IMG/VR virus record: IMGVR_UViG_3300045988_182940
Coordinates: 1 to 34,193 of that record
Direction: 5' to 3' (one strand)
Length of the DNA stretch: 34,193 nucleotides
Source: a virus
Shown: positions 1-34,193 of the stretch, piece after piece
How the letters are laid out: each line of letters opens with the position of its first letter
Position numbering within the stretch: position 1 is the stretch's first letter
Notes under the pieces: generated by a model
Told to the model about the DNA's origin: nothing
The model's database searches: none
What the model saw: the letters and a program-made list of their open reading frames with translations, nothing else
Translations under genes and position numbers: made by a program

Positions 1-119
1 GCTTTTTTGTTATGGAGAAAGCATTATGGCGGAAGAGTTCAAAAAGACCGGACTTATGGACGGAATGGGCGAAAACAATGATGACGACGATTTCAAAAAC
101 GACCCCGAGGGCGGCGGGA
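1..119. repeat. Terminal direct repeat, copy 1 (identical to 34075-34193)
   Basis: gcttttttgttatggagaaagcattatggcgg...gagggcggcggga was read at both ends of the window. Confidence 0.97.
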
Positions 120-937
120 ACAAAGCACTTCGTTTGCCGTTCGCACTGTGCAAAGCAAAGGGCATAAAGATACAGGATTGGTGGACACCTCGCGACGCTT
201 GGAACGCGTTAAAGAACGGCGGATATGTCGAAGATGTGGACGAAGAATACGCTAAACACTTGAAAGAAGAAAAGCGCGAGAAAGATAAAAAGTGGCGCAA
301 AGAGAACCCCGGGCGTGTTGCCATGTGGAAAAAGCGCGCCGAAATCAAGAAAGCGCAACTCAAAAACCCCGAGCATAATCCGGATAAGAGTTATATTCAC
401 GAGGACGGTAAGATTGCCGGTGCCGCCAAAGGTAAGCCGATGACGTTTGAACAGGCGGACAGCGGAAGCGTAAATCCCTATTATGGAACGGAGCAAATCG
501 GCTATGTAACCAACTGTCAAACTTGCGTGGCAACGTTTGTTGCTCGAAAACTCGGCTACGATGTAAAAGCATTGCCGAACCTCAACAACAAAAACATAGC
601 AGACCTATCGCATAATGTATCGCTTGCTTATCTCGATAAAGACGGAAATCACCCGAAACAAGAAAGTAGCGACGGCTCGTTAATGAGCGAACCCGGAAAG
701 ACGTACGCGTTGCGTTGGGCTTGGAAAGGCAGAAGTTCGGGACATATCGTCCTGATGATGAACGACGGACAAGGAACGTATTTATATGACCCGCAAACGA
801 ACACGAAGTATAGCGGCAAATCGGCATATTCGTTCATATCTCGTGGTTATGGTTTCAAAAAAATGGATTTGACCGATTGCACAATCGATGAAAAATTCTG
901 CGATAAAATCATGAAAGGAGTAAAGAAAAATGGATGA
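26..937 (+). CDS. Late effector/toxin candidate with a charged N-terminal half and a C-terminal papain-fold Cys-His-Asp domain (Tox-PL1/glutamine-deamidase-like; a CHAP or NlpC/P60-type hydrolase is the alternative)
   Basis: GGAG lies 8 nt upstream of the ATG. Motifs: NPYYG..GYVTNCQTCVATFVARKLGYDVKALP (Cys164), SSGHIVLMM (His240), YLYDPQ (Asp255). The N-terminus MAEEFKKTGLMDGMGEN is shared with the 1142 gene. Confidence 0.55.
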   Translation: MAEEFKKTGLMDGMGENNDDDDFKNDPEGGGNKALRLPFALCKAKGIKIQDWWTPRDAWNALKNGGYVEDVDEEYAKHLKEEKREKDKKWRKENPGRVAMWKKRAEIKKAQLKNPEHNPDKSYIHEDGKIAGAAKGKPMTFEQADSGSVNPYYGTEQIGYVTNCQTCVATFVARKLGYDVKALPNLNNKNIADLSHNVSLAYLDKDGNHPKQESSDGSLMSEPGKTYALRWAWKGRSSGHIVLMMNDGQGTYLYDPQTNTKYSGKSAYSFISRGYGFKKMDLTDCTIDEKFCDKIMKGVKKNG

Positions 938-1130
938 AATAAAAACACTCGTCGAAGAACTCGGCGCAAAGTCTTATAAAAAAGGCAAATCGTGGAACGG
1001 TTACGAGGTGTATATTCCCGTTTATACCGGTAATCCTTGTGTAGGCTTGCCTCTCGTGGTGCTTGTAAAGGGCGGCAAAGCAAGAATAAGCAACGCCAAA
1101 GAGGCAATTGATTACCTCAATTACGAATAA
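930..1130 (+). CDS. 66-aa protein translationally coupled to the papain-fold gene; candidate immunity or cognate partner
   Basis: The start overlaps the upstream stop (ATGGATGA). AAAGGAG lies 9 nt upstream. No TM segment or signal peptide. Confidence 0.5.
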   Translation: MDEIKTLVEELGAKSYKKGKSWNGYEVYIPVYTGNPCVGLPLVVLVKGGKARISNAKEAIDYLNYE

Positions 1131-1141
1131 ATCGGAGAAAC

Positions 1142-2071
1142 ATGGCAGATGAATTTAAGAAAAGCGGTTTGTTGGACGGCTTAGGTGAAAACGACGAAAT
1201 AGAACGTTGGATAACGGTCAAAGGCAATCACGTTCCGATAAAGAAAGGACAGTCGCAGGAAGAAGCAATCAAGCAGGCTTTCGGAGAAGCGGAAAAGACG
1301 CCCGAAATGAAGAAAAGCGGGCATATGGACGGCTTGGGAGAGTATAGCGAGAAAACTTCGGATGATACCGCCGAATCGGGATATAAAAGCGTAGACACGA
1401 AAACGTTTGTAAACACGCTGGCGGAAGCAAAAGCAACTGTTGCCAAAGACCGCCCGCAAGACGCTTGGAGAGTTTCGTCCCCGAATAGCGCAGTGTTTGA
1501 CGAAGAACATCCGAATGCAAAGAAATACACCACTCCCGGCGGAAGCACCGTTGCTATAACGCCCGACGGAGATATAGTGGCGGTTTGTAAGAGTACAAAC
1601 GACAGTTTGCACGGCAAACAGTTAATACAATTTGCAGTAAAGAACGGTGGGAACAAGTTAGACGCTTTCAGTGGATTGTGGAAGTTTTACACGCAGAACG
1701 GTTTTGAGCCTGTTTCGTGGACGCATTTCGTTGATAAAGAAGATGTGCGCCCCGACGATTGGAAACCCGAATACGGGAAAGAACCAGTTGTATTTTACAA
1801 ATATACAGGCAAAGCGACAAACGAATCACTTGAAGATTTTAAAAACAGAGTGCCGGAGAGCAAAGACTACTTTGCGGCGCAGAAAATAAGAGATGACCAA
1901 ATAAACGGAAAAGTCAAAGGGGTACATGCTATGACAAAAGAAAAAGAAGAGCAAATTAAGAGATTGGCAAAAGAAAAAGGTTTATCTTTTGCAAGCGCAA
2001 AGCGGATGCTTGAAGAAATGGAAGCGGATGATTTTGATTACGAACAATATATGGCTGAAATAGCATATTAA
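1142..2071 (+). CDS. Late effector candidate with a GNAT-like (acetyltransferase-fold) central domain and two copies of the shared leader motif
   Basis: GGAG SD. MADEFKKSGLLDGLGEN at residues 1-17 and EMKKSGHMDGLGEY at residues 55-68. Core STVAITPDGDIVAVCK...GKQLIQFAVKNGGNKLDAFSGLWKFYTQNGFEPV resembles GNAT motif A/B. Confidence 0.45.
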   Translation: MADEFKKSGLLDGLGENDEIERWITVKGNHVPIKKGQSQEEAIKQAFGEAEKTPEMKKSGHMDGLGEYSEKTSDDTAESGYKSVDTKTFVNTLAEAKATVAKDRPQDAWRVSSPNSAVFDEEHPNAKKYTTPGGSTVAITPDGDIVAVCKSTNDSLHGKQLIQFAVKNGGNKLDAFSGLWKFYTQNGFEPVSWTHFVDKEDVRPDDWKPEYGKEPVVFYKYTGKATNESLEDFKNRVPESKDYFAAQKIRDDQINGKVKGVHAMTKEKEEQIKRLAKEKGLSFASAKRMLEEMEADDFDYEQYMAEIAY

Positions 2072-2683: not shown

Positions 2684-2690
2684 AAACAAA

Positions 2691-2720
2691 AGGAGCAGAC
2701 AAAAAATCTGCTCCTTTTAA
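2691..2720. terminator. Intrinsic terminator between convergent gene sets, probably bidirectional
   Basis: AGGAGCAGA (2691-2699), a 7-nt loop, then TCTGCTCCT (2707-2715) followed by TTT. An A-run precedes the stem, which supplies the U-tract on the opposite strand. Confidence 0.8.
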
Positions 2721-2722
2721 TA

Positions 2723-2890
2723 TTACTTTTGCAAAGATTTAAGATACTGTTCAATCAGGAAGAGGATATATTCGGGTGGCTTTCTCGTCCCTTGCTCCCA
2801 ATTTCGGATAGTAGCAACGGGTACGTGAACAAGCAAAGCGAATTTACTTTGCGATAGCCCGGTAGAGGCTCGGAGTTCTTTAATCGTCAT
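2723..2890 (-). CDS. 55-aa XRE/MqsA-like helix-turn-helix protein (MTIKELRASTGLSQSKFALLVHVPVATIRNWEQGTRKPPEYILFLIEQYLKSLQK); last gene of the reverse cassette
   Basis: Translated by hand (below the ORF-track cutoff). AGAGGA SD 7 nt upstream. Classic HTH pattern LSQ..FA.....(V)..I..WE.G.R.P. Confidence 0.8.
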   Translation of the reverse strand: MTIKELRASTGLSQSKFALLVHVPVATIRNWEQGTRKPPEYILFLIEQYLKSLQK

Positions 2891-2901
2891 AGTTTAATCC
2901 T

Positions 2902-3117
2902 CTAATTTTCTTCGTATGCGTCGTTAAAACTTTCGGTTGAAAAATCGCTTTCGGTGCTTTGCTTGTACAAATCAATCTTATATTGGCTATATAGTTCTTC
3001 AACCGCTTCGCGCAAAGTTAAATCGTTTTTCTTTGCATAACTTTTTACTTCCTTACTATCCTTTTCGCTTAGGTAACAAGTATAAGTTACCGTTGCTTTA
3101 ACTTCGACTATAATCAT
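2902..3117 (-). CDS. Hypothetical 71-aa protein with an acidic C-terminus (ESDFSTESFNDAYEEN)
   Basis: ORF track. AAGGAG SD. The stop lies 11 nt before the HTH gene start. AT-rich codon usage. Confidence 0.6.
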   Translation of the reverse strand: MIIVEVKATVTYTCYLSEKDSKEVKSYAKKNDLTLREAVEELYSQYKIDLYKQSTESDFSTESFNDAYEEN

Positions 3118-3171
3118 TTTTCATACTCCTTTAATAGTCCGTCAATAATTTTATGAAAACTATAATATGCC

Positions 3172-3528
3172 TCAGACTGCTGTCCATTTTGTTATTAAAA
3201 ATATATCGTCAAATGCGCGAATAGAATATCTTCCGTTTAATGCGTATAATCTGTGGTTTTCTGCTATTGGATGATTATTGTCGATACCGTCGCAATCGTC
3301 AATCAAGATATGAGCGTTATTAAATCTTGCCGTGCCTAAATAATTGCTGTTATGCTCATAGTCTATGTTTTGATTTTTGCAATAATTTTCAAGTTCTTCG
3401 TAATTATCAAAAATGATAGCATACGTGTTTCCGTCCTCGCCATTTTGTTTTGGATAAGCAATAACATTGCCGTTTCCGCAATCGATTGCTAAACTACTTA
3501 TGTCGCTGTATGTGTCTATAACTTTCAT
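3172..3528 (-). CDS. Hypothetical 118-aa acidic, N/D-rich protein
   Basis: ORF track. AAGGAG SD. AT-rich compared with the flanking phage genes. Confidence 0.65.
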   Translation of the reverse strand: MKVIDTYSDISSLAIDCGNGNVIAYPKQNGEDGNTYAIIFDNYEELENYCKNQNIDYEHNSNYLGTARFNNAHILIDDCDGIDNNHPIAENHRLYALNGRYSIRAFDDIFLITKWTAV

Positions 3529-3575
3529 AATTTACTCCTTGCTTGCGTTTGACCGCACAAGCGCGGTTAATTATT

Positions 3576-3896
3576 TTAAGCGACGAAAATTTTTCTGTCG
3601 CATTTAGCCTGAGTTTTCTTTCCATAAAGCGAATACCACTTATCAGCCGTCGAGGTTATAAGCGTTTGCGCTTTTTCATTGTCGTTAGCAAAAACAGCTT
3701 CAAGGATATCTTTAACAGCACTTTCGCTTTGTTCGACAGAGTGGTTATCGTCATATCCGAAGTAATCGGCAAGGTTATACAGCTCTTGCATAAACCACTT
3801 TTCAACTTTAAGCTCGCCGCGCTTTGCTTTCCCGTAGATAACGCTTATCTGTCCTTTGCTGAACTCCGTTGCTTTCTGATAACCGTACTGCTTCAT
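3576..3896 (-). CDS. Hypothetical 106-aa protein, first gene of the reverse cassette, with a possible N-terminal HTH-like segment (QKATEFSKGQISVIYGKAKRG)
   Basis: ORF track; GAGGAG SD 6 nt upstream of the ATG at 3896. Confidence 0.6.
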   Translation of the reverse strand: MKQYGYQKATEFSKGQISVIYGKAKRGELKVEKWFMQELYNLADYFGYDDNHSVEQSESAVKDILEAVFANDNEKAQTLITSTADKWYSLYGKKTQAKCDRKIFVA

Positions 3897-3986: not shown

Positions 3987-4077
3987 AAAAATCTAAAAAA
4001 AATCTAAAAAAATGAAAACAATCTCAAAAATGGGGTTGTTTTTTTATTTGGGAAAAACTTTTAAGGAGAAAAAAATT

Positions 4078-4398
4078 ATGGCAACAAATTTAACACGCGA
4101 AGATATGAAACGCATGATGAGTGCGAATCCGAGCATGAGAGAACCGGAAGAAGAGATAAAGGAGAAAGTCTATCCAAATATAGCAAAAGAGCGCGTAGAG
4201 CAAGAGTTAGACGAGTTACACGAAAAGATACTTAAATTGACTTGCTTTCTATACGGCAGAAAAATACCGGAGCGCGTTGTAACGCCTGAAATGCGTGAGC
4301 TTATGAAACAACAGCTCAAACACATGCAAGCGTATGCAGGAACGCTTCAAGACCGTTTAATCATATGGGACTTGTACAAAAACGAACATAAGGAGTAA
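4078..4398 (+). CDS. Hypothetical 106-aa helical protein upstream of the small terminase
   Basis: Internal ATG of the 4012 ORF, preceded by AAGGAG. The 4012 start lacks an SD. Confidence 0.6.
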   Translation: MATNLTREDMKRMMSANPSMREPEEEIKEKVYPNIAKERVEQELDELHEKILKLTCFLYGRKIPERVVTPEMRELMKQQLKHMQAYAGTLQDRLIIWDLYKNEHKE

Positions 4399-4402
4399 GA
4401 CT

Positions 4403-4861
4403 ATGCCAAAAAAGAAAAATTCAGAGCCGAAGGAGCGGTACAGAGCCGAGTGGTTAGGTCAACCGCTAACCGCCGAGGAAGCGCGAGCAAAAGGCAAGGC
4501 GGGCGGCATTAAGTCGGGACAGGTTCGTAAAGAGAAAAAAACGCTAAGAGAAACGATGAAATTGCTTCTTAAAGAGCAGTTCAAATTCAACAATCCCGTA
4601 ACGGACGAGTTCACAAGCGGCGACGGTTATGCTATGTGGTGCGCACAGGTAACGGCAGGCGCATTAAAAGGCGACAGAAAGTGCCTTGAATACCTGCGTG
4701 ATATTATCGGGGAGAATCCGTCCACCAAAGTTGTTGGTGCGGAAGAAGAGCCGCTCCGTAAGGTGGAAATAGAGTTTGTAGACAAAAGCAAGCGTTCTAA
4801 AACGGAAAGCGACCCGAAAATAGTCGGAGAGCAAAGTCCGACCGTCAGCGATGAAAGTTGA
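4403..4861 (+). CDS. terS: Terminase small subunit (probable)
   Basis: 152 aa, directly upstream of and overlapping terL. Basic N-terminus with KGKAGGIKSGQVRKEKK, a pattern common in small terminases. Confidence 0.6.
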   Translation: MPKKKNSEPKERYRAEWLGQPLTAEEARAKGKAGGIKSGQVRKEKKTLRETMKLLLKEQFKFNNPVTDEFTSGDGYAMWCAQVTAGALKGDRKCLEYLRDIIGENPSTKVVGAEEEPLRKVEIEFVDKSKRSKTESDPKIVGEQSPTVSDES

Positions 4862-6287
4862 GATTGCGGACGTATATGAACCTGCGTTCGATATGTCCAC
4901 GCCGAAATGTTGTAAAAACCTATGGTATGCGCCGAGAGCGTGCGGCAAATCGTCAGCGTTAGGTCGTATCTTATGGCTGTATTACATTAGCTTTCCCGAT
5001 TATGACGTGGCGATAGGCGTAGACAGTCTTACAAACGCGGGCGACGGCGTATTAAGCGAGTTTCAGTCGTTCCTTGAAAGCGAGAACCTTGCGGACGATT
5101 GGATATTCAGTGCCAAATCGTGCTATATGAAAGGCGCGCGTAATCAGATACGCTCGTATGCTGTTCAGACGAATAAGTTAGACAACGTGAACGCAACGAA
5201 GTCGAAGAAGCTCATACGTCCTGTTTCGTTGTTCGTAATGGACGAAGTGCAGAAGTTGCATAACAAAGGAATTTTGGATAACTGTTTATCCACGTTCTTA
5301 CGACAGATGAAAGCAGGGCATAGCAAGGTTATCCTTGCAGGAAACCCCGACCGTGCGGCGATGTGGTTTGATGACTACTACAAAGTCAAGTCGGAAGATG
5401 ACGAGTGGACGGTTATAAAGCCGACATATCTCGATATCATAGCGTGGCTTCCCGACGCTTTAATTCACGAAATCGAGATGATGAGAAAAACCGACCCGGT
5501 GTCGTACGCTCAAATATACTTAGGCGACCTCGAAGTAGCGGGCTGGGAACAAACGTTTCATTCGTTTATCGAAAGAGAGCATTATATTCCGAGAGAAGAG
5601 TTACTTGCCGCTCCGCAAAAGACGGGCGATATGCTTCACTCTATCGTTATCGGCATAGACGACGCGGAAAGCCAAGACGCCATAGCGGGCGAAGCCGTTA
5701 TGGTGCAGAGAAACGGACATATGAAAGTCAACGAGGGATTGTATCGCTCTTGCAAGGAATTACCGGTAAAGCCTGCACTTACGGAGCGGTGTGATATCGT
5801 AGCAGAGTATCTCGACTATATACAGGCGCATTTCAATCCCGAGCGTGCGATACCGATAATAATGGTGTTCGACTGCGCAAGCGGTATGTATAGACAAATG
5901 GCGGTTATGAAACGGACAGACCGCAATTTTATGAGGTGGAGAAACGTGTTATTAAAGCCTTACACAACCAAAGGAGAGAAAGAGGAACAATTGGACGAAG
6001 TAAACACGGCGTTTGCGAACGGGATATTGAAAGTCGTAAACGTAGACAGGTATTCGCCGAAGTATTCAAACGCTATGCTTGTCAAACAGATAAAAGCGTT
6101 GCGGTACTTGGACAACAAGAAGATAGACCCGACCATTCCGAACGACTGTACGGACGCATTGCAGTACGCGGTTATGACCGTGCTTGCGAATCCGTATCGT
6201 TTGTCGTTCCCGGAAAGACGCGCTATTTACGACGCGGACAACGGAGCGGAAACGTTCCTCGAAAAACTGAAATATGGAGAACTGTAA
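4851..6287 (+). CDS. terL: Terminase large subunit
   Basis: 478 aa. Walker A-like PRACGKSS, Walker B LFVMDEV, AGNP coupling motif, and the nuclease-domain acidic motif VIGIDDAES. Confidence 0.9.
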   Translation: MKVEIADVYEPAFDMSTPKCCKNLWYAPRACGKSSALGRILWLYYISFPDYDVAIGVDSLTNAGDGVLSEFQSFLESENLADDWIFSAKSCYMKGARNQIRSYAVQTNKLDNVNATKSKKLIRPVSLFVMDEVQKLHNKGILDNCLSTFLRQMKAGHSKVILAGNPDRAAMWFDDYYKVKSEDDEWTVIKPTYLDIIAWLPDALIHEIEMMRKTDPVSYAQIYLGDLEVAGWEQTFHSFIEREHYIPREELLAAPQKTGDMLHSIVIGIDDAESQDAIAGEAVMVQRNGHMKVNEGLYRSCKELPVKPALTERCDIVAEYLDYIQAHFNPERAIPIIMVFDCASGMYRQMAVMKRTDRNFMRWRNVLLKPYTTKGEKEEQLDEVNTAFANGILKVVNVDRYSPKYSNAMLVKQIKALRYLDNKKIDPTIPNDCTDALQYAVMTVLANPYRLSFPERRAIYDADNGAETFLEKLKYGEL

Positions 6288-6640
6288 TGAGATTAAGAGA
6301 GTTTTTGAACGGCGATATAGCATACACGCGTGCGGAGAAAGAGATACGCGAATGGGTAGAAACAGCATATCCGGGAATAAGCATAGAATTTTATCCGCAC
6401 TTGGAGCTTGTGCGAACGAATAAGCGTGCTATATCCGAAAGACGTTGCAGAAAGATAACCGAAGTGGTCAATATCAAGATAGGCGAGATATTGGAGAAAC
6501 ACTCGGAAGAAATCTACATCGGGGAGCGGTTAGACCGTATCTGGAAGAAACACCCCGAGTTTGACGCGGAAGTCGAGAGTATAGACGACATAAAGAAAAA
6601 CCCGCTCTTTCTCTCGTACCTGAAAGAGTTGATAATCTGA
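6287..6640 (+). CDS. Hypothetical 117-aa protein between terL and portal
   Basis: The ATG overlaps the terL stop (TAATG). This is the in-frame tail of the 5936 ORF. Confidence 0.55.
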   Translation: MRLREFLNGDIAYTRAEKEIREWVETAYPGISIEFYPHLELVRTNKRAISERRCRKITEVVNIKIGEILEKHSEEIYIGERLDRIWKKHPEFDAEVESIDDIKKNPLFLSYLKELII

Positions 6641-6641
6641 G

Positions 6642-8348
6642 GTGCTTATGGAAATTATAGACGATAAAAATTTTATGCCGCTCGGAGTTGGGAGCGAATT
6701 ATCCGCAGACAGTTTCAAAGTCGTGCAGTATTCAAACACATACTTGCTTGCCGCTCCGCGTTATTACACTTTTTACGCTTCGTATATCAAGCCTCTTGTC
6801 GGAATGTATACGGGCTGGATAGAGGGTTTCCACAATCTCGACTACGGCGTTATACCGACAAAGTTCTTGCAGAAGATAGGCAACGGGATAAAGAGCCTTT
6901 TGTTCTCGAATCCCGTCGTGCTTAACTCGTACAATCCCGACACGAACAACATAATCGATACGAAGTTCAAGAAAAAGAGCAATTTCGACAATGCAAAAAT
7001 CGAAGCGTACGATTTCTGCGAGGCAGGCGGTACGGGACTGTTAAAGCTCAATCGCGACGGTAACGGTGATTTGCGGTTTGAAGCAATACCAATGGACAAG
7101 TTCTTTATCGAAGTTGACGGCTACGGAGATATAGAGCGCGTTAAGTGCTTTATAGCGACTTATCACGACACTATATCGGCGACGACAGAGTATCACTTAT
7201 GCGAGGAGCGGTTCTTCAAATACACAACTATCGGAAGCGTTAAAAAGCGTTTCCCAATGGTGCATTATACGGTTTATCAGACCACGACGAATATTACATA
7301 CGACGCTGTACCGACAAACCCCGTGCGTTGGGCAGACGTTCCGCCCGAAGTAAGAAACAGCCTTAAACGCGATTACGGCGAAATCGATATAGACAAAACC
7401 GACGCATACACGATGACGAACGATTCGTCAAGGCAGTACGCAACAATGTGGCAGAACTGCACGCTGTTACCATTCGACGACGATTTAGGCGTAAGGCTGA
7501 TAAAATTCACTCGTAATATTCCGTCGTTTCCGAAAATGCCGTTCGGTATGCCGCTTGCGGACTTTCTGCAAAACGAACTGTATCAGTATGAGCAGTTAAA
7601 ATTCTTCGAGCGTGTGGAAGTATATACGGCACGCGCAAGGGTAATGATGGACGACTGCAACAGCAACCCGAACGACCCCGAAGAAAGACGGCGTGCGCTT
7701 GACCCGATAATCTTCAATTACTACGAGAATTTACTTAACGGCGAGAAAGACGGCAAGCCGCTCCCGATACAGCCTGAACTACGAGCGGACGAGATAAAGA
7801 CGCAAAAACAGAATATTTTGAACGACACGGCGGCGGCACTCGGGTTATCGAGTACTACGATAGCAAGTTGGCTATCAGACGGCACGACGCAGAAATCCGC
7901 TACGGAAATCAAAGCGGGACGAAGCAACACCGAAACGTTCATCAAAGACAAGATAGGTATCATATCACAGCCCTTGCAGGACTTGATTGATATCTATTTT
8001 CATTATTACGGGGTCGAGGCTCCCGAAATGCGTATTATGCCCGTAAGCCAAGAGATACAGGCAGAAGAGATACAGCAGTACGCAGAATTGTACGACGGCG
8101 GAAAGGTTACTGCTCGTATGCTTGCCGAAAAGATACTCGGCACTAACTCTTACAGGGAAACAAAAGACCTCGAAGAATTTATTATTTCTCACAGTAACAA
8201 AGCGCAAATGCCAATGGGCGGCGGTTTACCGCAAGAGAGCGGAGCGGCGGAGAACCCAAAACCGACGACTCAAAACACAAATGCGACGTTAAATAAAACA
8301 GCACAAGGAGGGCTGGCTAATGGCACTGATAAAATCAATGTTGGATAA
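6642..8348 (+). CDS. Portal protein (probable); the ATG at 6648, with GAGG 5 nt upstream, is the likelier start
   Basis: About 566 aa ORF after terL and immediately before the scaffold and capsid genes. The call rests on size and position only. Confidence 0.7.
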   Translation: MLMEIIDDKNFMPLGVGSELSADSFKVVQYSNTYLLAAPRYYTFYASYIKPLVGMYTGWIEGFHNLDYGVIPTKFLQKIGNGIKSLLFSNPVVLNSYNPDTNNIIDTKFKKKSNFDNAKIEAYDFCEAGGTGLLKLNRDGNGDLRFEAIPMDKFFIEVDGYGDIERVKCFIATYHDTISATTEYHLCEERFFKYTTIGSVKKRFPMVHYTVYQTTTNITYDAVPTNPVRWADVPPEVRNSLKRDYGEIDIDKTDAYTMTNDSSRQYATMWQNCTLLPFDDDLGVRLIKFTRNIPSFPKMPFGMPLADFLQNELYQYEQLKFFERVEVYTARARVMMDDCNSNPNDPEERRRALDPIIFNYYENLLNGEKDGKPLPIQPELRADEIKTQKQNILNDTAAALGLSSTTIASWLSDGTTQKSATEIKAGRSNTETFIKDKIGIISQPLQDLIDIYFHYYGVEAPEMRIMPVSQEIQAEEIQQYAELYDGGKVTARMLAEKILGTNSYRETKDLEEFIISHSNKAQMPMGGGLPQESGAAENPKPTTQNTNATLNKTAQGGLANGTDKINVG

Positions 8349-8988
8349 ATTGATTGCCGAACTGAAAAAAGCACCTCCCGAGGTAAAGAGCGAACTTAAA
8401 AGCGCACTCGGCGAGGAAACCGTAACCGCTCCCGAAGTTAAGGAAGAAACCGAAACGGACGGAAACGGCGAAAACAGCGCAGAAAAGGAAGTTGCAACCG
8501 ACGAAACGCAAGCAACCGAGGAAACGACCGCAGAAGAAGAAACGCCCGAAAATGGCGAAAATACGGAGCCTGAGAAAGAAACCGAAGAAGAGGAAACCGA
8601 AGAAGAGGAAACCGAAAAGGTCAGAACGGAAGCTCCCGAAACGGAAGAAGAACCGGTTATGCAGAAAGGCGTTGAAGCGGAAGAGAGCGACGACACGGGC
8701 GACGGAGAAACCGAAGCGATAGCGGAAACCGCTCCCGAAGAAACCGAAGAGGTCGAGGGCAACATTCCCGAAATGCGCAACGAACCTGCCGTAGAAGAAT
8801 CGGAGATGCCTGCCGATTACGAGGCTATTATTGACGGCTTGAACGCGAAAATACTTGCGTTACAGGCTGAAAATCAGAAGTTAAAGGCAAAAACCGAGGG
8901 TGCGTTCGGGTATTCGTCCAAAATCGGCGGAGCGGTTAAACACAACTGCCTGTATGACGATTGCGACGGATTGAAAATGCACAAATAA
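8320..8988 (+). CDS. Scaffolding protein (probable), highly acidic and E/T-rich with a C-terminal coiled coil
   Basis: Lies between portal and capsid. ETEEEETEEEETEK low-complexity region and LNAKILALQAENQKLKAK helix. GGAGGG SD. Confidence 0.6.
   Translation: MALIKSMLDKLIAELKKAPPEVKSELKSALGEETVTAPEVKEETETDGNGENSAEKEVATDETQATEETTAEEETPENGENTEPEKETEEEETEEEETEKVRTEAPETEEEPVMQKGVEAEESDDTGDGETEAIAETAPEETEEVEGNIPEMRNEPAVEESEMPADYEAIIDGLNAKILALQAENQKLKAKTEGAFGYSSKIGGAVKHNCLYDDCDGLKMHK
8578..8619 (+). repeat. 15-nt tandem repeat (gaaaccgaagaagag, about 2.8 copies) inside the scaffold gene
   Basis: Read directly; encodes ETEEE ETEEE ETEK. Confidence 0.85.
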
Positions 8989-9009
8989 TTTTTCAGGAGA
9001 ATAAAAAAC

Positions 9010-10287
9010 ATGTCACTTTTTAACCTTAACAACCAGCAGGTCGCAAGACTGACCTCTAAAACCGTTTACAAGAATCTGTATCAGGATATTATCCACAAGG
9101 ACGGATTCGGTATCACCGACAGATTCGTAACCCCCGAACAGACCAAAGCCGCAATGATTGATATTTTCGTCCCGATTCCTATCGGCGGCAGATTCCGTAT
9201 GCGCGGCGCAAGCTCCAATGGCGAATGGGCTAATACCAACAACGCGCCCAACGCGAACAAACAGCGCAATCACGTTCTGTCAAGACGTTTCACTATCGAT
9301 ATCCTCAAAAGATACGACTTCAACATTGCCGTTTCTGAGGACGAAATCGAAATGACCGGAGCGGCAAGCCTCAACGAATCGTTCGAGCAGATTTGTCGTG
9401 AACAGATTGAGCAGGATATCGCAATCAACATAAACGGCTATACTTTCGCGGCACAGGTGTTTGCGTTCTTCACCGAATCGTTCGCGGCGGCTTACGCAAA
9501 AGGCTCTTCGGCGGCGGCGACGGATATTACCGACGCAGAAGTCAAAGCGGCACTCGAAAAGTACACTTACGATTCGACCAACAGAACGGGCGCAATCCGT
9601 GCGTTCAAGATTTCCAACGCAAAAGTAAGCAAAGGCGACAGCAAACTGTATGCGGATTACTTCCCGGCAGACGCAAGACAGGCGTTCCTGTTCGACCCGA
9701 TTTATCTTGTAGACCTTTCCGAAACCGCTTCGATGTCCGCTTCCGACGTTGCAACCCGTATGCTTGCAGGCGGCGGAATGAACGCGTTCACTTCCGAGAA
9801 AAAGACCGTTGCAGACTTCCAGAAAGGCTATGTCGGTTGGCTCGACGGTATGCCTTTGTATGAAGTAAGCCAGCAGGTCAAAAATGCCGCTTGGTATTAC
9901 TTGGGACTTGACACGACCGATGACGCAACCGTTATAGGATATCTCAACGATATTCAGGCGATGATTGCACCTGCAAACGCAACCGTTCGCGGACTGCGCC
10001 CCACTTCGTTCAAAACCGTAGACGACCCCGATACTCAGGGCGTCATTATTCAGCCTAAGGTCAATATGGGCGTTCGTTGCCTTTCCGGTACCGCTCTTAA
10101 ATGCGTCGTGTCCGGTACCGAGTGGACGGGTGCCACTTCCAACGTGGACAACGCAAAAACCACTATCGTTGCTATTCTCAAAGCAATCAATATGGTTCTG
10201 CCCAACCTCTCGTACGACAACGACAACAAGGTCGCACAGGCTTCCACTTTGACCTCTAAGGCAGACGGAACTCAGACCCTTGCGTAA
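9010..10287 (+). CDS. Major capsid protein (probable)
   Basis: 425 aa ORF directly after the scaffold, with an AGGAG SD. Size and position are typical. A stem-loop follows the next small gene. Confidence 0.7.
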   Translation: MSLFNLNNQQVARLTSKTVYKNLYQDIIHKDGFGITDRFVTPEQTKAAMIDIFVPIPIGGRFRMRGASSNGEWANTNNAPNANKQRNHVLSRRFTIDILKRYDFNIAVSEDEIEMTGAASLNESFEQICREQIEQDIAININGYTFAAQVFAFFTESFAAAYAKGSSAAATDITDAEVKAALEKYTYDSTNRTGAIRAFKISNAKVSKGDSKLYADYFPADARQAFLFDPIYLVDLSETASMSASDVATRMLAGGGMNAFTSEKKTVADFQKGYVGWLDGMPLYEVSQQVKNAAWYYLGLDTTDDATVIGYLNDIQAMIAPANATVRGLRPTSFKTVDDPDTQGVIIQPKVNMGVRCLSGTALKCVVSGTEWTGATSNVDNAKTTIVAILKAINMVLPNLSYDNDNKVAQASTLTSKADGTQTLA

Positions 10288-10633
10288 GTTAAACCTTTTT
10301 GGAGAAGATACAAGTCGGCTCGTCGGTGTGCTTTACGGGCATAACGGGAGCGGAAAAGTCTATAACTATTTAGGCAAAAAAACGCTCAGAACGGGCGACT
10401 TGGTTACTCCGGAAGTTACTCACCCGGTATCGGGTAAGACTTACAAAACACTCGGCAGAATAGTGTACACGCGCGACGCAAACGGTGCGCCTGCCGAACA
10501 AACACTCGACAAATTATCCGACGAATTTGTTATGCTCAAAACATTAGGTTCGACCGACCAACGGTCACTGCCCGGCTACTACCCCGGGTGGGGAGATGAC
10601 ACAATGCACAAGCTTAACACGTTCGGCGAGTAA
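10280..10633 (+). CDS. Hypothetical 117-aa protein, with a TTG start overlapping the capsid stop, or a later GTG start
   Basis: ORF track. No clear SD. The N-terminal KLNLFGED and C-terminal KLNTFGE motifs resemble each other. Confidence 0.45.
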   Translation: MRKLNLFGEDTSRLVGVLYGHNGSGKVYNYLGKKTLRTGDLVTPEVTHPVSGKTYKTLGRIVYTRDANGAPAEQTLDKLSDEFVMLKTLGSTDQRSLPGYYPGWGDDTMHKLNTFGE

Positions 10634-10659
10634 TTACTCTCCATTTTCCCCTATTAAAG

Positions 10660-10690
10660 GAGCGGCGGTTTCCCTCAATTCCCGTCGCTC
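10660..10690 (+). other. Stem-loop after the capsid block (9-bp stem including one G-U pair, 13-nt loop); possible partial terminator or RNA-processing site
   Basis: GAGCGGCGG (10660-10668) pairs with CCGTCGCTC (10682-10690). There is no strong U-tract. Confidence 0.3.
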
Positions 10691-10753
10691 TTATGCCGTT
10701 AAGAGTATAGCCGTGCAACTCGGCAAAACGGCAACAACACACGGAGGTTTATT

Positions 10754-11215
10754 ATGTTAGATACCACATATCCGCTCAGCGACGACGCAATGGTGTACGA
10801 CTACACCAAACACAGATACATACTCACGCCTGAGTACGTGCTTAACAATCTCGGCATAGACTTATACGAGAAAATGGGCGGCAAACGTACGGTCAATACA
10901 ACTACGGCTATAAACGTGCTTTTGGACAACCGCATTTCGTTCAAGATTTATTCGGCGATATACGCTCATCAGGACAAGCAACTTATGGAGTATATCCTTG
11001 CGAAAAGTCCGTCTGCGCGTAAAGTCCTGCTCGAAGCAATGAGTAATCAATTGCTCGACCTTGTAACTTACGGCGAAAAAGAGAAAGAGCAAGTTTCTCA
11101 AACCACTTATAACGCGCTTTTACAGCCGATAGACGAAACGGGCAAGTCGGTTTTGTATAGGATTTACAGAGGTTTTTTAACCTACATCCCGACTTACGAA
11201 GAGGGGCATTACTGA
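10754..11215 (+). CDS. Hypothetical virion protein, possibly a head-tail connector/adaptor (by position)
   Basis: 153 aa; GGAGG SD; first gene after the capsid block. Confidence 0.4.
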   Translation: MLDTTYPLSDDAMVYDYTKHRYILTPEYVLNNLGIDLYEKMGGKRTVNTTTAINVLLDNRISFKIYSAIYAHQDKQLMEYILAKSPSARKVLLEAMSNQLLDLVTYGEKEKEQVSQTTYNALLQPIDETGKSVLYRIYRGFLTYIPTYEEGHY

Positions 11216-11216
11216 T

Positions 11217-11837
11217 ATGGATATAACGGATTTTCTCGCTCACGACCGCAAAAAAGAGTTTTTGGTCGGGTATTACAAAAACAGCGAATCCGCGCCCGAA
11301 GCGTATTTTGAGTACGGCATAGAAAGCGACAAAACAACGGCGTACAATATGCTTATCAAAAACGTTATGTCCGCACGGTCGAATATGATTATTCATACGA
11401 CGTGGGATATGGGCTGGGACACGCTCGGTTTCGTTGAATTACAAGACGGCACCGATTGGCAGGTTGTAGACTATACCACGAGATTGACAAAGCATAATCC
11501 TAACGTTTTACGCATTATAAAGAGCAATCCGGCGACGGAATACGTCTTGTCGCTCGTAGCGGTAGACAATCCGTTGAAAAAGTTCAGAAACGAATATCAA
11601 TTGTATATAACGGGTGTAACGGTTAAAGTCAACGAACATTACATCCCCGAAAATTACATTCTGCAAAACGGCGACAAGATAGAAGTTTTTGGTTATGGCC
11701 AGAAATTCAACGTCAACGACACAGAATACGATAACGGAGCGGACATTATCATTAAAAACCAAAATATCAGCATTTCGGGAACGGGTTCCGCAGTAAACCA
11801 TAGTTCGATGAAAATACTTTTCAGACAAACCGATTAA
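11217..11837 (+). CDS. Hypothetical virion protein (206 aa)
   Basis: ORF track; packed tightly in the late operon. Confidence 0.5.
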   Translation: MDITDFLAHDRKKEFLVGYYKNSESAPEAYFEYGIESDKTTAYNMLIKNVMSARSNMIIHTTWDMGWDTLGFVELQDGTDWQVVDYTTRLTKHNPNVLRIIKSNPATEYVLSLVAVDNPLKKFRNEYQLYITGVTVKVNEHYIPENYILQNGDKIEVFGYGQKFNVNDTEYDNGADIIIKNQNISISGTGSAVNHSSMKILFRQTD

Positions 11838-26312: not shown

Positions 26313-27551
26313 TCAGCCCTCAAAGCGTTTAAGTTTTACAAAATAATCAGTAAAAGGCGATTTTTCGCGTTTCATAAAATGCGTATAAACGTCTTTTGTC
26401 ATCGATAAAGTAGCGTGACCGAGCCATTTTTTGGTTAAAAGGTCGTCAATTTGTGTTAAATGGCACATAGTAGCGAATGTATGACGTGTAGAATGAACGG
26501 AAACGTCGGTAAAGCCTAATTTTACAAAAGTTCTGCCGAAAGCGAGTTTAACGGCGTTGTAGGTATAATTTTCCGAAACGCAGTAGTCGAGTTTTTCTCG
26601 TAAACTCTCGTCATAATTGATAAAGCGTTGTGACGTGCGGTTTTTCGTGTCGTGTTCGATGATACCGTCGCGGTTCATCATCTTATTGACCCGTATTTCG
26701 TCATCGCCTATATCGTTGGGCGTGAGAGCCAAAAATTCACTTATGCGCATACCCGTACAGCAAAGGACGGTAAAGAGCCGACTATACTTTTCGGGTAAAG
26801 TCGTAAGAATAGCCGTTTGTTCTTCCGCAGTAAAAGCGCGTTTATGCTCCGACTTAACTTTCGGGCGTTTCAAGAGTTCGCAAGGGTTTTTACGTATTTT
26901 CTCCGAAATGACCGCTTGACGAAGAGCGGAATTGACGACATCGAATACTTTGCGCCGTGAGTTTTCACCGTTTATAGATATAAAAAATTGTTGCAGAATA
27001 TCGGGCGTAAGTTGTTCCATAGGCGTTGCGATTGTCTTTATCTTATTAAATGCGTCCATATAACCTCTTTTCGAGTTCGAGCGTAAGTACGGTTCTTTAT
27101 ATGTTTCGTACCAATAATTAACCCATTCGATAAAAGACGAGCCTTTCTTTGTGACGCGTTCCGTTTTTTCCTTTTCTTTTAAAGGGATATTCTTTAATTT
27201 TTCAATAACCTCCTTTTGAGTTTTAGCCGTTACCGTGTGGCGTTGGAATCTACCCTCCCACCACGTGTAGCGGCTATTTTTGTTTTTCCGGGAACGTTTT
27301 CGAATAGACCCCGCCCCGAAAGGCAGATAAACAGACATTTTTTCCTCCGCCTGAATATCCGATAACAACCTGAAATTAACGTCAGGATAAGGGGACGGCT
27401 TTCCGCCCTCACTTACAATACGAAAAGGCGATTTGCGCGTAATCGGTTCATTTGCGAAATCGTCGTTTCCTATTATTTTGCCGCACAATAACGAGGCTTT
27501 TTGTAAAGCCTCCGCTAAAAGGTCGAGCAATCTCCTTGTATCATCTTCCAC
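26313..27551 (-). CDS. int: Tyrosine integrase (site-specific recombinase); the alternative start at 27338 has a stronger SD
   Basis: C-terminal catalytic signature HSTRHTFATMCH...LGHATLSMTKDVYTHF. GSIRKR...W.GRF arm-binding-type N-terminus begins at Met72 (GGAGGaaaaaATG). Confidence 0.93.
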   Translation of the reverse strand: MEDDTRRLLDLLAEALQKASLLCGKIIGNDDFANEPITRKSPFRIVSEGGKPSPYPDVNFRLLSDIQAEEKMSVYLPFGAGSIRKRSRKNKNSRYTWWEGRFQRHTVTAKTQKEVIEKLKNIPLKEKEKTERVTKKGSSFIEWVNYWYETYKEPYLRSNSKRGYMDAFNKIKTIATPMEQLTPDILQQFFISINGENSRRKVFDVVNSALRQAVISEKIRKNPCELLKRPKVKSEHKRAFTAEEQTAILTTLPEKYSRLFTVLCCTGMRISEFLALTPNDIGDDEIRVNKMMNRDGIIEHDTKNRTSQRFINYDESLREKLDYCVSENYTYNAVKLAFGRTFVKLGFTDVSVHSTRHTFATMCHLTQIDDLLTKKWLGHATLSMTKDVYTHFMKREKSPFTDYFVKLKRFEG

Positions 27552-27576: not shown

Positions 27577-27927
27577 TTAACCTACATCGCTTTGGGAGTT
27601 TTTCAGAAACGCTTCGGCATAGCCGAGAACTTTTCCTTGCTGTACTGCTGTCAGTTGCCTGAACAGAGCGAGCATTTCTATCTCTTGCGATGTTAAGTTA
27701 CTTGATTGTGTACGAGCCGCTTTCGGGGCAGGCTCCGTGTAAAAATAATTCTCGGGCAAATCGAACGCTTCGGAAATTCTTGCAAGCGTGCGCCGAGAGG
27801 GGGCTGATAACCCGTTTTTCCAACGTTGAATAGCCCCGTTCGCTAAACCGACTTTTTTTTCAAATGTATGGGGGTTTAGCCCTTGTTTTTCGATTAGGTC
27901 ATATACTTTTTCAATGATTAAATCCAT
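27577..27927 (-). CDS. CI-like XRE-family repressor (116 aa) with no S24 peptidase domain
   Basis: HTH KVGLANGAIQRWKNGLSAPSRRTLARISEAF. Divergent from the cro-like gene and adjacent to the integrase. GGAG SD. Confidence 0.85.
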   Translation of the reverse strand: MDLIIEKVYDLIEKQGLNPHTFEKKVGLANGAIQRWKNGLSAPSRRTLARISEAFDLPENYFYTEPAPKAARTQSSNLTSQEIEMLALFRQLTAVQQGKVLGYAEAFLKNSQSDVG

Positions 27928-33351: not shown

Positions 33352-33529
33352 GCCGCATAGAAAAACGAGTTTCCGAAATTGCAACGAATGTACCTATCGA
33401 TTGACAATGCAATGCTTCAATTCGATAAGTGGCAATACGTGTTATGAGGGACACAAACAATACAGCCGCATAAAAATGACGGCGGACGAATTAAAGCGTT
33501 TACGGGAGGCGTTAAATGGACAACGGTAG
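33344..33529 (+). CDS. Hypothetical 61-aa Cys-rich protein
   Basis: Internal ATG of the 33278 ORF, overlapping the upstream stop (ATGAATAA). AGAGG SD. CNECTYRLTMQC...CYEGH. Confidence 0.45.
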   Translation: MNKPHRKTSFRNCNECTYRLTMQCFNSISGNTCYEGHKQYSRIKMTADELKRLREALNGQR

Positions 33530-33917
33530 AAGAAGAGAGATTGAAAGGGCGTTCTATGATTATCAAAAAAACCGTATGGAAGCGGCGGAGTACATATCGG
33601 ACTTATGCTCGACCAAATCCCCGGTGTTGGAGAATTTAGGTCACGGAAGCGGCATAAGCGACCCGACGGCGTTATCGGGAGTAAAACTTGCCGAGTACAA
33701 AAAATACTTGTGGTGTGAAGTGGTTGAAAAGACCTGCACGACGTTTCGCTTCGAGTATGAATACGAACTCATCAAACTGCGGTATTTCAATCACATATCC
33801 CGAAACAGCGTGAACTCGTATCTCAATATATCAGAGCGAACGCATAGTTATTGGTTGGAGCGAATACTGTCTACGGCGGAGCGTTGGGCGTACGAATTAG
33901 GCATTTACACCGATTGA
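33516..33917 (+). CDS. Late-gene transcriptional activator, RinA/ArpU-like
   Basis: 133 aa; last early gene before the late cassette. The pattern IERAFYDY...SDPTA...LIKLRYFN...ISERTHSYWLERILSTAERWAYELG matches RinA-family organisation, with a sigma region-4-like C-terminal HTH. Confidence 0.65.
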   Translation: MDNGRRREIERAFYDYQKNRMEAAEYISDLCSTKSPVLENLGHGSGISDPTALSGVKLAEYKKYLWCEVVEKTCTTFRFEYEYELIKLRYFNHISRNSVNSYLNISERTHSYWLERILSTAERWAYELGIYTD

Positions 33918-34034: not shown

Positions 34035-34063
34035 TTGACACATAGAGAAATATGTGTTAAAAT
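34035..34063 (+). promoter_or_regulatory. Near-consensus promoter TTGACA-17-TGtTAAAAT driving the effector cassette; includes copy 2 of the box (GAGAAATATGTGTTAAAAT)
   Basis: -35 at 34035-34040 and -10 at 34058-34063, with TG at 34055-56. The first CDS starts at 34100, equivalent to position 26. Confidence 0.7.
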
Positions 34064-34074
34064 ACAAAGGTAAT

Positions 34075-34193
34075 GCTTTTTTGTTATGGAGAAAGCATTA
34101 TGGCGGAAGAGTTCAAAAAGACCGGACTTATGGACGGAATGGGCGAAAACAATGATGACGACGATTTCAAAAACGACCCCGAGGGCGGCGGGA
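34075..34193. repeat. Terminal direct repeat, copy 2 (identical to 1-119); most likely an assembly overlap of a circular or circularly permuted molecule
   Basis: Exact 119-nt match to the window start. It cuts through the 5' end of the first CDS, so it is not a biological boundary. Confidence 0.95.

Follow-up and report, generated by a model that had tools for sequence, protein, structure and literature searches.

A short portable N-terminal leader on stand-alone effector enzymes of MuF-less temperate Clostridia phages, a candidate virion incorporation tag

Introduction

The stretch of DNA analysed here, called the window, comprises positions 1–34,193 of IMG/VR record IMGVR_UViG_3300045988_182940 and derives from a temperate phage of uncultured gut Clostridia. 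Two of its proteins, encoded by the open reading frames (ORFs) ORF1 and ORF2, carry the same short peptide, the leader, ahead of unrelated enzyme domains. The leader is a real motif that is selected as a peptide, disordered, modular and lineage-specific. It is exclusive to a phage head type that lacks MuF, and its enzymatic cargo is fused to MuF elsewhere. From these comparisons of sequences and predicted structures the simplest reading, which appears probable on a narrow balance, is that temperate Clostridia phages whose heads have no MuF/SPP1-gp7-type carrier protein use the leader to load stand-alone effector or toxin-like enzymes into the virion (procapsid).

The proposed mechanism has the following steps. 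(i) The leader would bind a lineage-specific head component, which may be the scaffold, the inner capsid surface or the portal, during head assembly. (ii) The attached enzyme would thus be enclosed, and would later be ejected with the DNA into the next host. (iii) A small protein encoded downstream would neutralize the enzyme in the producing cell. (iv) The leader is portable, being swapped among genes and combined with further short modules, here designated C, B and D. (v) In some relatives the leader may be removed at a Prp-like site. The original prediction, made from the sequence alone, proposed that a detachable leader loads cargo in place of MuF. Comparative tests (13 cargo families, MuF fusions, MuF-less heads and disorder) speak for this idea, whereas leader binding, packaging, the receptor, ejection and any cleavage are steps that we infer.

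Leader copies in the window

The leader occurs three times in the window. Scores are those of a profile hidden Markov model (HMM) of 17 columns built from 20 leader variants.

26..76, plus strand: leader copy 1, MAEEFKKTGLMDGMGEN, N-terminus of ORF1 (leader HMM 15.7 bits)
1142..1192, plus strand: leader copy 2, MADEFKKSGLLDGLGEN, N-terminus of ORF2
1304..1345, plus strand: leader copy 3, EMKKSGHMDGLGEY, within ORF2, where a disordered linker joins module C to the GNAT domain (HMM 18.3 bits)

These copies agree exactly, in position and sequence, with those predicted, and none is expected by chance. A degenerate DNA pattern for KK.G.[LM]DG[LM]GE matches the window four times, compared with 0.00 matches in 100 shuffles. 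The fourth match (34115–34147) lies within an exact 119-bp terminal overlap, in which window positions 1–119 equal 34075–34193. The real copies are therefore three, and the overlap identifies the window as a completely assembled circle of 34,074 bp. Six-frame translation of the window reveals no further copy.

Copies 1 and 2 are identical at 13/17 residues and differ at 15/51 bases, with synonymous differences in nine of the 13 conserved codons. When 15 substitutions are placed randomly, a mean of 7.4/17 residues remain identical, and none of 100,000 trials reached 13/17. Strong purifying selection thus acts on the peptide, selection at this level having been suggested before. The motif is a short linear leader, basic-x-x-(L/I)-(M/Y)-(D/S)-G-x-G-(E/S)-acidic, situated in a disordered N-terminal region. 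BLASTP comparison of ORF1 with ORF2 gives an alignment essentially confined to the leader regions; the remainder of the two proteins is unrelated, one having a Gln_amidase papain fold and the other a GNAT fold. In AlphaFold2 models the enzyme domains are confident, whereas the predicted local distance difference test score (pLDDT) falls below 50 for ORF1 aa 1–20 and for ORF2 aa 1–6 and 50–76. Since the leader is disordered in these models, no globular domain begins with it.

The effector proteins

The two leader-bearing genes and their parts are as follows.

26..937, plus strand: ORF1, 303 aa
77..121, plus strand: ORF1 acidic linker and DFKNDPE motif, aa 18–32, present in nearly all ORF1-family homologues with or without a leader
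122..232, plus strand: ORF1 module D, aa 33–69, LRLPFALCKAKGI..WWTPRDAWNALK, two helices, also found ahead of GNAT domains in other phages
509–802, plus strand: ORF1 papain-fold effector domain Gln_amidase PF15644, aa 162–259 (Pfam E = 1.5e-7)
930..1130, plus strand: 66-aa gene overlapping the ORF1 stop
1142..2071, plus strand: ORF2, 309 aa
1199..1282, plus strand: ORF2 module C, aa 20–47, ERWITVKGNHVPIKKGQSQEEAIKQ, beta-hairpin and helix
1379..1906, plus strand: ORF2 GNAT-fold effector domain, aa 80–255 (AlphaFold2 pLDDT > 90)

The Pfam description of PF15644 is 'papain fold toxin 1', and the structures matched by the AlphaFold2 model of ORF1 (pLDDT 85.5) are those of papain-like toxins, deamidases and CdiA-CT. 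ORF2 has no Pfam match. Its model matches solely GNAT acetyltransferases in the PDB, and among viral models its domain matches large polyvalent-protein-associated domains. Neither protein contains a MuF (PF04233) or minor-capsid-2 (PF06152) domain in Pfam searches. An extra helical tail of approximately 50 aa (aa 256–309; nt 1907–2071) distinguishes ORF2 from most relatives, which have 254–263 aa and no counterpart of it. A group of remnant genes (P0191–P0199) joins leader and module C straight to the last ORF2 residues, which points to internal deletions of the GNAT domain.

Both genes are followed by small ORFs. A homologue of the 66-aa gene lies behind the ORF1 homologue wherever this was read (L048, L050, L062 and L063). 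By analogy with the immunity genes downstream of MuF toxins (PMC5576092), the 66-aa protein is likely to be an immunity or inhibitor partner of ORF1. An 81-aa ORF lies downstream of ORF2.

The leader as a portable module

The original prediction called for a search for the motif ahead of other domains, and it does recur there. In pooled proteins the HMM identifies 155 leader-bearing sequences with 116 unique tails that fall into 13 unrelated C-terminal clusters. These include Gln_amidase, GNAT, a 125-aa coiled-coil family, PBECR3, MuF_C, PBECR1-like nucleases and several unknown domains. The HMM separates its matches cleanly: true matches score 12.4–20.9 bits and the next best 7.2 (4,237 six-frame ORFs). 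The leader usually starts at residues 2–6, but is also found at residues 26–57 behind other modules. It is combined with four further short modules: module C (WITVKGNHVPIKKGQS, a beta-hairpin and helix), module B (EHPRDxxGKF), module D (LPFALCKAKGI..WWTPRDAW, two helices) and GGGxPQxY. The leader is thus one among several interchangeable N-terminal modules.

Existing resources do not record it. The N-terminal 75 aa find no family in Pfam, PHROGs, NCBIfam or PDB sequence searches, no Pfam, NCBIfam or PHROG model covers the leader or its partner modules, and six motif strings gave no relevant match in full-text literature. Strict-motif scans of IMG/VR and JGI metagenomes returned this phage lineage alone, plus chance matches, and variant-pattern scans added nothing further. 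Below threshold, at 5.7–7.2 bits, the HMM matches the C-termini of two immunity-like small proteins (L063:10869–11144 and 6258–6530, ending in ..KSTNLLDGKLSD and ..KSTDLHDGKLSD before the stop) and that of a small protein directly before the portal gene (L062:14985–15377, ending in ..KKKGGLYGKQR).

Such a distribution might also arise if leader and module C served as a recombination handle, that is, a constant 5' region of polymorphic-toxin-like cassettes swapped behind one promoter and ribosome-binding site, the peptide having no targeting role. C-terminal domains do switch abruptly after leader and module C. Truncated remnants with internal deletions exist (P0191–P0199), the leader type has been exchanged between genes (P0001), and L063 carries a cassette array with a small ORF behind each cassette. 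However, copies 1 and 2 differ at 15/51 bases and in nine codons synonymously, so that the constraint lies on the peptide and DNA identity is too low for a good recombination substrate. The leader is also found internally behind other modules (copy 3; L050, L063), and a handle would leave the restriction to one head type unexplained. We regard a pure handle as rather unlikely, although handle and loading tag are mutually compatible readings.

Leader status and head type

The effector domains of the window have MuF-linked counterparts. Fusion partners of the GNAT domain are PF04233 or PF06152 (P0049, P0045) and a Treponema 'head morphogenesis' protein, and in GenBank phages the domain matches 'minor capsid protein' genes only. 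Gln_amidase is found joined to Phage_min_cap2 in L058 and to Phage_Mu_F in L059 and L060. As judged from these fusions, both window effector domains are MuF-delivered in other phages. The head module of the window itself is organized as follows.

4403..10287, plus strand: head module without MuF or protease
4403–4861, plus strand: TerS-like gene, assigned from position alone, with no family match
4851–6287, plus strand: TerL
6642–8348, plus strand: portal, with weak T7-type similarity
8320–8988, plus strand: scaffold-like protein, very acidic, 222 aa, next after the portal
9010–10287, plus strand: major capsid protein, 425 aa

The prediction that no MuF gene follows the portal holds: the acidic scaffold-like gene occupies that place. 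In family scans no MuF, minor-capsid-2, prohead-protease or Prp model matches any window ORF tested, and phmmer with seven MuF seeds gives zero matches in the window. A further suggestion, that the motif is a maturation-cleavage site for a phage protease, is weakened by the lack of a detectable prohead protease; the sole hint of cleavage comes from some relatives, which have a site like that of the host protease Prp behind the leader.

The leader is present in 24/121 ORF1-family sequences. In a tree of the catalytic part, sequences with a leader do not group together but require at least eight changes, whereas leader status matches head type perfectly across every locus examined. Nine of nine leaderless ORF1 homologues examined belong to MuF/min_cap2 phages, in which that gene follows the portal (L048, L056, L064–L068, L122, L123). 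Leader-bearing homologues occur in window-type MuF-less heads, namely the window clade, L054, L055, L062 and L063; L050 and L073 are counted as window-type by TerL or capsid type. With the HMM at 10 bits or more, 13 MuF/minor-capsid-2 loci (158,930 residues) yield no match, compared with 22 in nine window-type loci. Leader status therefore tracks head type and not cargo ancestry.

In relatives the leader genes are located within the head module, in the order TerL, ORF1 homologue, immunity gene, scaffold, major capsid protein and leader protein. The ORF1 homologue and its small partner lie between TerL and the scaffold gene in L054, L055 and L062. L054, L062, L063 and L073 encode other leader proteins behind the capsid gene, and in L055 a second leader gene is found several kilobases further downstream.

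Lineage-specific variants

Leader variants are specific to a phage and common to different cargo proteins of that phage. The window lineage has KK[TS]GL[ML]DG[ML]GE, L054, L055 and L062 have NxLM[SN]GKGE, and L063 has GGLYDGAGSE or NNLYDAGNSE. In L062, for example, the ORF1 homologue carries NNDLMSGKGEN and the 178-aa protein after the capsid gene carries KDTNLMSGKGEW; L054 and L055 are alike in this respect. The L063 ORF1 homologue has KKNNLYDAGNSED, its MuF_C and PBECR3 proteins VKGGLYDGAGSE, and its other cassettes KSLLSGAGSE. Leader identity is 0.62 within and 0.19 between lineages (permutation p ~1e-4).

Variation of this kind might track hosts instead of heads if the leader were a motif for a host factor, such as a chaperone, a Prp-like protease or a regulator, acting as a pro-peptide or a switch of stability or activation. 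Host adaptation would likewise yield co-variation within a phage. Three unrelated proteins have a Prp-like site behind their leader modules (NFINIQLF'G, PFINVYLF'G and PFINISLF'S), and the hosts are Clostridia, a class of Firmicutes, which are among the Prp-bearing phyla (PMC9405229). The capsid and scaffold proteins of phage 80alpha, moreover, have a common host-cleaved N-terminal leader. Against this, the leader itself is unlike the L27 Prp motif, (D/N)LQ(F/L)F'A (PMC9405229), the window leaders have no Prp-like site, with no LQ[FH]FA-type site anywhere in the window, and the site is optional even inside one family. MuF-type phages from like gut metagenomes and metagenome-assembled genomes (MAGs) of Christensenellaceae and Eubacteriales are never leader-bearing. 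The host-factor explanation is accordingly held to be improbable.

Where the Prp-like sites occur, they precede the C-terminal domain, in the contexts NFINIQLF'GSN, PFINVYLF'GGK and PFINISLF'SK (the P0200–P0251 family, e.g. L013, L024 and L037; L050:878–1474; and P0389). Alternative alleles of the 125-aa family have KKTAKVSAKDN in place of the site.

Receptor candidates and points against a loading tag

The head module at 4403..10287 holds the candidate receptor or receptors of the leader. Several observations count against the proposed loading function or qualify it. (i) No cultured relative with a virion proteome came to light, and for the capsid protein Pfam, the PDB and GenBank phages yield no match. 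(ii) Two forms of receptor mimicry fail in statistical tests. Scaffold C-termini of the type ..K.N.LYDD.. resemble the leader by eye, but score 1.1 bits with the HMM and fall outside the top matches of a position-specific scoring matrix (PSSM), and this idea is rejected as unsupported; the capsid N-arm of MuF-type phages scores 5–11 PSSM bits, is absent from the HMM match list and is at most a weak lead. (iii) The association with head type involves a small number of independent lineages, of which three have complete head modules and L050 and L073 are additional, and the leader HMM was trained on sequences of those same lineages. (iv) Leaderless ORF1 homologues of MuF phages are separate genes, so that their products, if packaged, are packaged by means other than the leader. 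(v) In L072, proteins with module C lie beside a short MuF. (vi) The similarity of leaders within a phage could stem from gene conversion instead of co-evolution with a receptor, and the leader has been exchanged between genes in P0001. (vii) The ORF1–ORF2 unit of the window has a near-consensus sigma70 promoter of its own in front and a terminator and reverse-strand island behind, and this promoter and terminator are compatible with moron-like expression from the prophage.

The N-arm segment in question, FV[KT]SALMG[LM]GAT (capsid aa ~12–24), resembles the leader FVKTGLMDGMGE after a one-residue deletion. Capsid genes with it are found at L048:16090–17391, L064:11791–13089 and L067:5026–6576.

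Gene setting

Features that surround the ORF1–ORF2 unit, and those that mark the phage as temperate, are listed below.

33516..33917, plus strand: activator-like gene upstream of ORF1 on the circle (PHROG transcription regulator/activator)
34035..34063, plus strand: sigma70-like promoter TTGACA-17-TAAAAT with TG, an 11/12 consensus match only
2688..2718: strong bidirectional terminator-like hairpin closing the ORF1–ORF2 unit
26313–27551, minus strand: integrase, temperate marker
27577–27927, minus strand: CI-like repressor, temperate marker

The promoter lies 37 nt before the ORF1 ATG at 34100 (equal to nt 26). ORF1 and ORF2 had been placed directly behind a promoter that follows a late activator and just ahead of the packaging genes. 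The first part stands, as the activator-like gene and the promoter do precede ORF1; the second has to be qualified, since the terminator and a reverse-strand island of about 1.2 kb (2723–3896) split the unit from the packaging genes in the window.

This arrangement allows the view that ORF1 and ORF2 are morons expressed from the prophage, as interbacterial toxins or defence enzymes with immunity, and that the leader serves, for example, release by lysis or membrane association. Besides the promoter and terminator that flank the unit, the gene pairs resemble toxin and immunity, CdiA-CT is among the toxin structures matched by the papain-like fold, and other accessory genes lie nearby, including a sequestin-like sponge. 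We nevertheless think it distinctly unlikely: the leader (KK-TGLMDGMGEN-acidic), as read from the sequence, has no hydrophobic core, unlike a Sec or Tat signal; the leader genes of L054, L055, L062, L063 and L073 stand amid TerL, scaffold and capsid genes, a position in which they are unlikely to be expressed independently in the lysogen; and the same domains are MuF fusions elsewhere.

The reverse-strand island consists of an HTH_3 gene (2723–2890) and three unknown ORFs up to 3896, and a sigma70-like promoter with an 11/12 match is present at its far side (3974–3946, minus strand). The close relatives L002–L004 are without the island. The gene at 4012–4398, which immediately precedes the TerS-like one, has a match to PF21825 (crAss001_48/Sequestin; E = 1.5e-12). 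Papers that employ this name describe phage proteins that bind up immune signalling nucleotides. The presence of this gene marks the activator-to-terminase region as an accessory or counter-defence island.

Two further observations concern the head module. A 234-aa ORF listed with a GTG start (5936–6640) overlaps TerL; relatives have a gene of 117–134 aa between TerL and portal, so that the true start is probably near 6290 and not 5936. The major capsid gene, unsplit in the window (425 aa), is divided into parts of 148 and 283 aa by an HNH (NUMOD4/HNH_3) endonuclease gene in the close relatives L002 (13802–15949), L003, L004 and L052, which points to a mobile intron or homing element there.

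Homologue searches find the same phage lineage in human-gut assemblies, as contigs of 35–39 kb. MAG matches to ORF1 homologues come from Christensenellaceae, Eubacteriales and Flemingiibacterium, which are the likely hosts of the wider ORF1 family.

Module C beyond this phage group

Module C is not confined to leader-bearing proteins. An exhaustive search with ORF2 aa 1–75 as query shows it to be widespread, with 269 cluster representatives at 50% identity (E ≤ 0.001). Its consensus is xWITV[KR]GNHIPIKKGQSKEEAV, a beta-hairpin and helix without a family model. The module is usually found at aa 17–50 behind a different leader, MPSYxQYxRQMAVLD, and ahead of hypervariable C-termini. Giant proteins contain it as tandem copies (P0257, six copies). 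In L072, whose head-module gene families match a contractile-tailed (E217-like) phage, three module-C proteins (5580–7226, 8074–9333 and 10001–11653) flank the short MuF inside the head module. MuF and these modules are therefore not mutually exclusive in all phages. The spread of module C, together with L072, the single locus inspected for its gene context, indicates that an architecture of a short address module plus a variable enzyme may be general.

A broader proposal can be put forward tentatively, and we hold it to be open to considerable doubt. Tailed phages may load free-standing effectors by means of a combinatorial code of very short N-terminal address modules, with no carrier domain. 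The leader described here (leader A) would be specific to one MuF-less head type and would co-evolve with its receptor; other leaders, such as MPSYxQYxRQ with module C, would serve other heads, and the tags would be portable enough for arbitrary proteins to be loaded into capsids of gut phages.

Comparison with known systems

Phage T4 offers a working precedent. Mullaney & Black reportedly described a capsid targeting sequence (CTS) on the T4 internal proteins IPI/II/III and Alt. The conserved T4 CTS is found on diverse internal defence proteins (PMC3012670). The likeness consists in a short N-terminal peptide common to unrelated effector or defence proteins of one phage, which is also what is observed here. 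The T4 sequence is portable to foreign proteins, and its cargo is ejected with the DNA. It has no sequence similarity to the leader. In T4, cargo is loaded through a scaffolding core and the prohead protease gp21 later cuts off the CTS, whereas the window ORFs match no protease family. The phages considered here are, moreover, small temperate Clostridia phages in which the leader may be internal, duplicated or mixed with modules.

MuF polymorphic toxins and polyvalent proteins share the effectors themselves, namely Gln_amidase, this GNAT, PBECR and MuF_C (PMC5576092, PMC5512222). They also share small downstream immunity-like ORFs (<150 aa), genes in or beside head modules and polymorphic C-termini. 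They differ in their carrier: the MuF or minor-capsid-2 domain of ~110–350 aa is absent from the proteins and the genome, and a disordered leader of 12–17 aa is found instead, with or without small modules. Polymorphic toxin systems in general combine a conserved N-terminal trafficking region with hypervariable C-termini that change by cassette exchange (PMC3482391); the 13 families, remnants and swaps reported here follow the same plan.

Payloads of extracellular contractile injection systems (eCIS), such as Pdp1 and Pnf of the Photorhabdus virulence cassette (PVC) and Afp18 of the antifeeding prophage (Afp), have N-terminal packaging domains or signal peptides (PMC10097599; bioRxiv 10.1101/2023.11.13.566157). 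Their disordered N-termini serve as addresses by which toxins are directed to a phage-derived particle, and divergent leaders are proposed to direct payloads to different particles. The leader is similarly disordered (pLDDT < 50). However, eCIS cargo resides in the tail tube and needs the Pvc15 ATPase, whereas the setting of the leader is a temperate phage with a DNA-packaging capsid, and the sequences are unrelated. Family scans of window ORFs find no eCIS component or Pvc15-type ATPase; terminase, portal, capsid and integrase genes are present.

In encapsulins, short Gly-rich terminal cargo-loading peptides dock diverse enzymes inside a shell of HK97 fold. These peptides are usually C-terminal, the shells have neither DNA nor a portal, and no sequence relationship to the leader is evident. 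A further comparison is provided by the Prp-cleaved N-terminal extension common to the 80alpha capsid and scaffold proteins and ribosomal protein L27 (PMC9405229, PMC5744158). It too is a short N-terminal leader on unrelated proteins in Firmicutes phages without a prohead protease, and some relatives of the window have a Prp-like site. The leader is nevertheless unlike MLxx(D/N)LQ(F/L)F'A, the window proteins are siteless, and the Prp leader is carried by structural proteins and not by cargo enzymes.

With no MuF domain, prohead protease, eCIS component, Prp motif in the leader or signal-peptide core, the leader is not to be filed under any of the families that these features define. By analogy, it plausibly works like the T4 CTS, MuF and the eCIS packaging domains. 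The claim that no such detachable leader had been described has to be narrowed: the principle is already known from the T4 CTS (PMC3012670), from MuF toxins and polyvalent proteins, and from the PVC and Afp domains (PMC10097599; bioRxiv 10.1101/2023.11.13.566157), whereas this motif itself is new to the Pfam, NCBIfam and PHROG models and to the full-text string searches.

Implications

If the loading function is correct, the leader would provide a sequence signature for virion-delivered effectors and anti-defence enzymes in MuF-less uncultured gut phages, such cargo being invisible to annotation at present. It would also mean that small temperate Firmicutes phages, which have no prohead protease, arrived independently at a targeting-peptide solution like that of T4. 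A tag of 12–17 residues with lineage-specific variants could then be of use for engineered protein delivery by phage particles. Module C, for its part, defines a much larger unannotated family that follows the same logic of a constant N-terminus and a hypervariable C-terminus.

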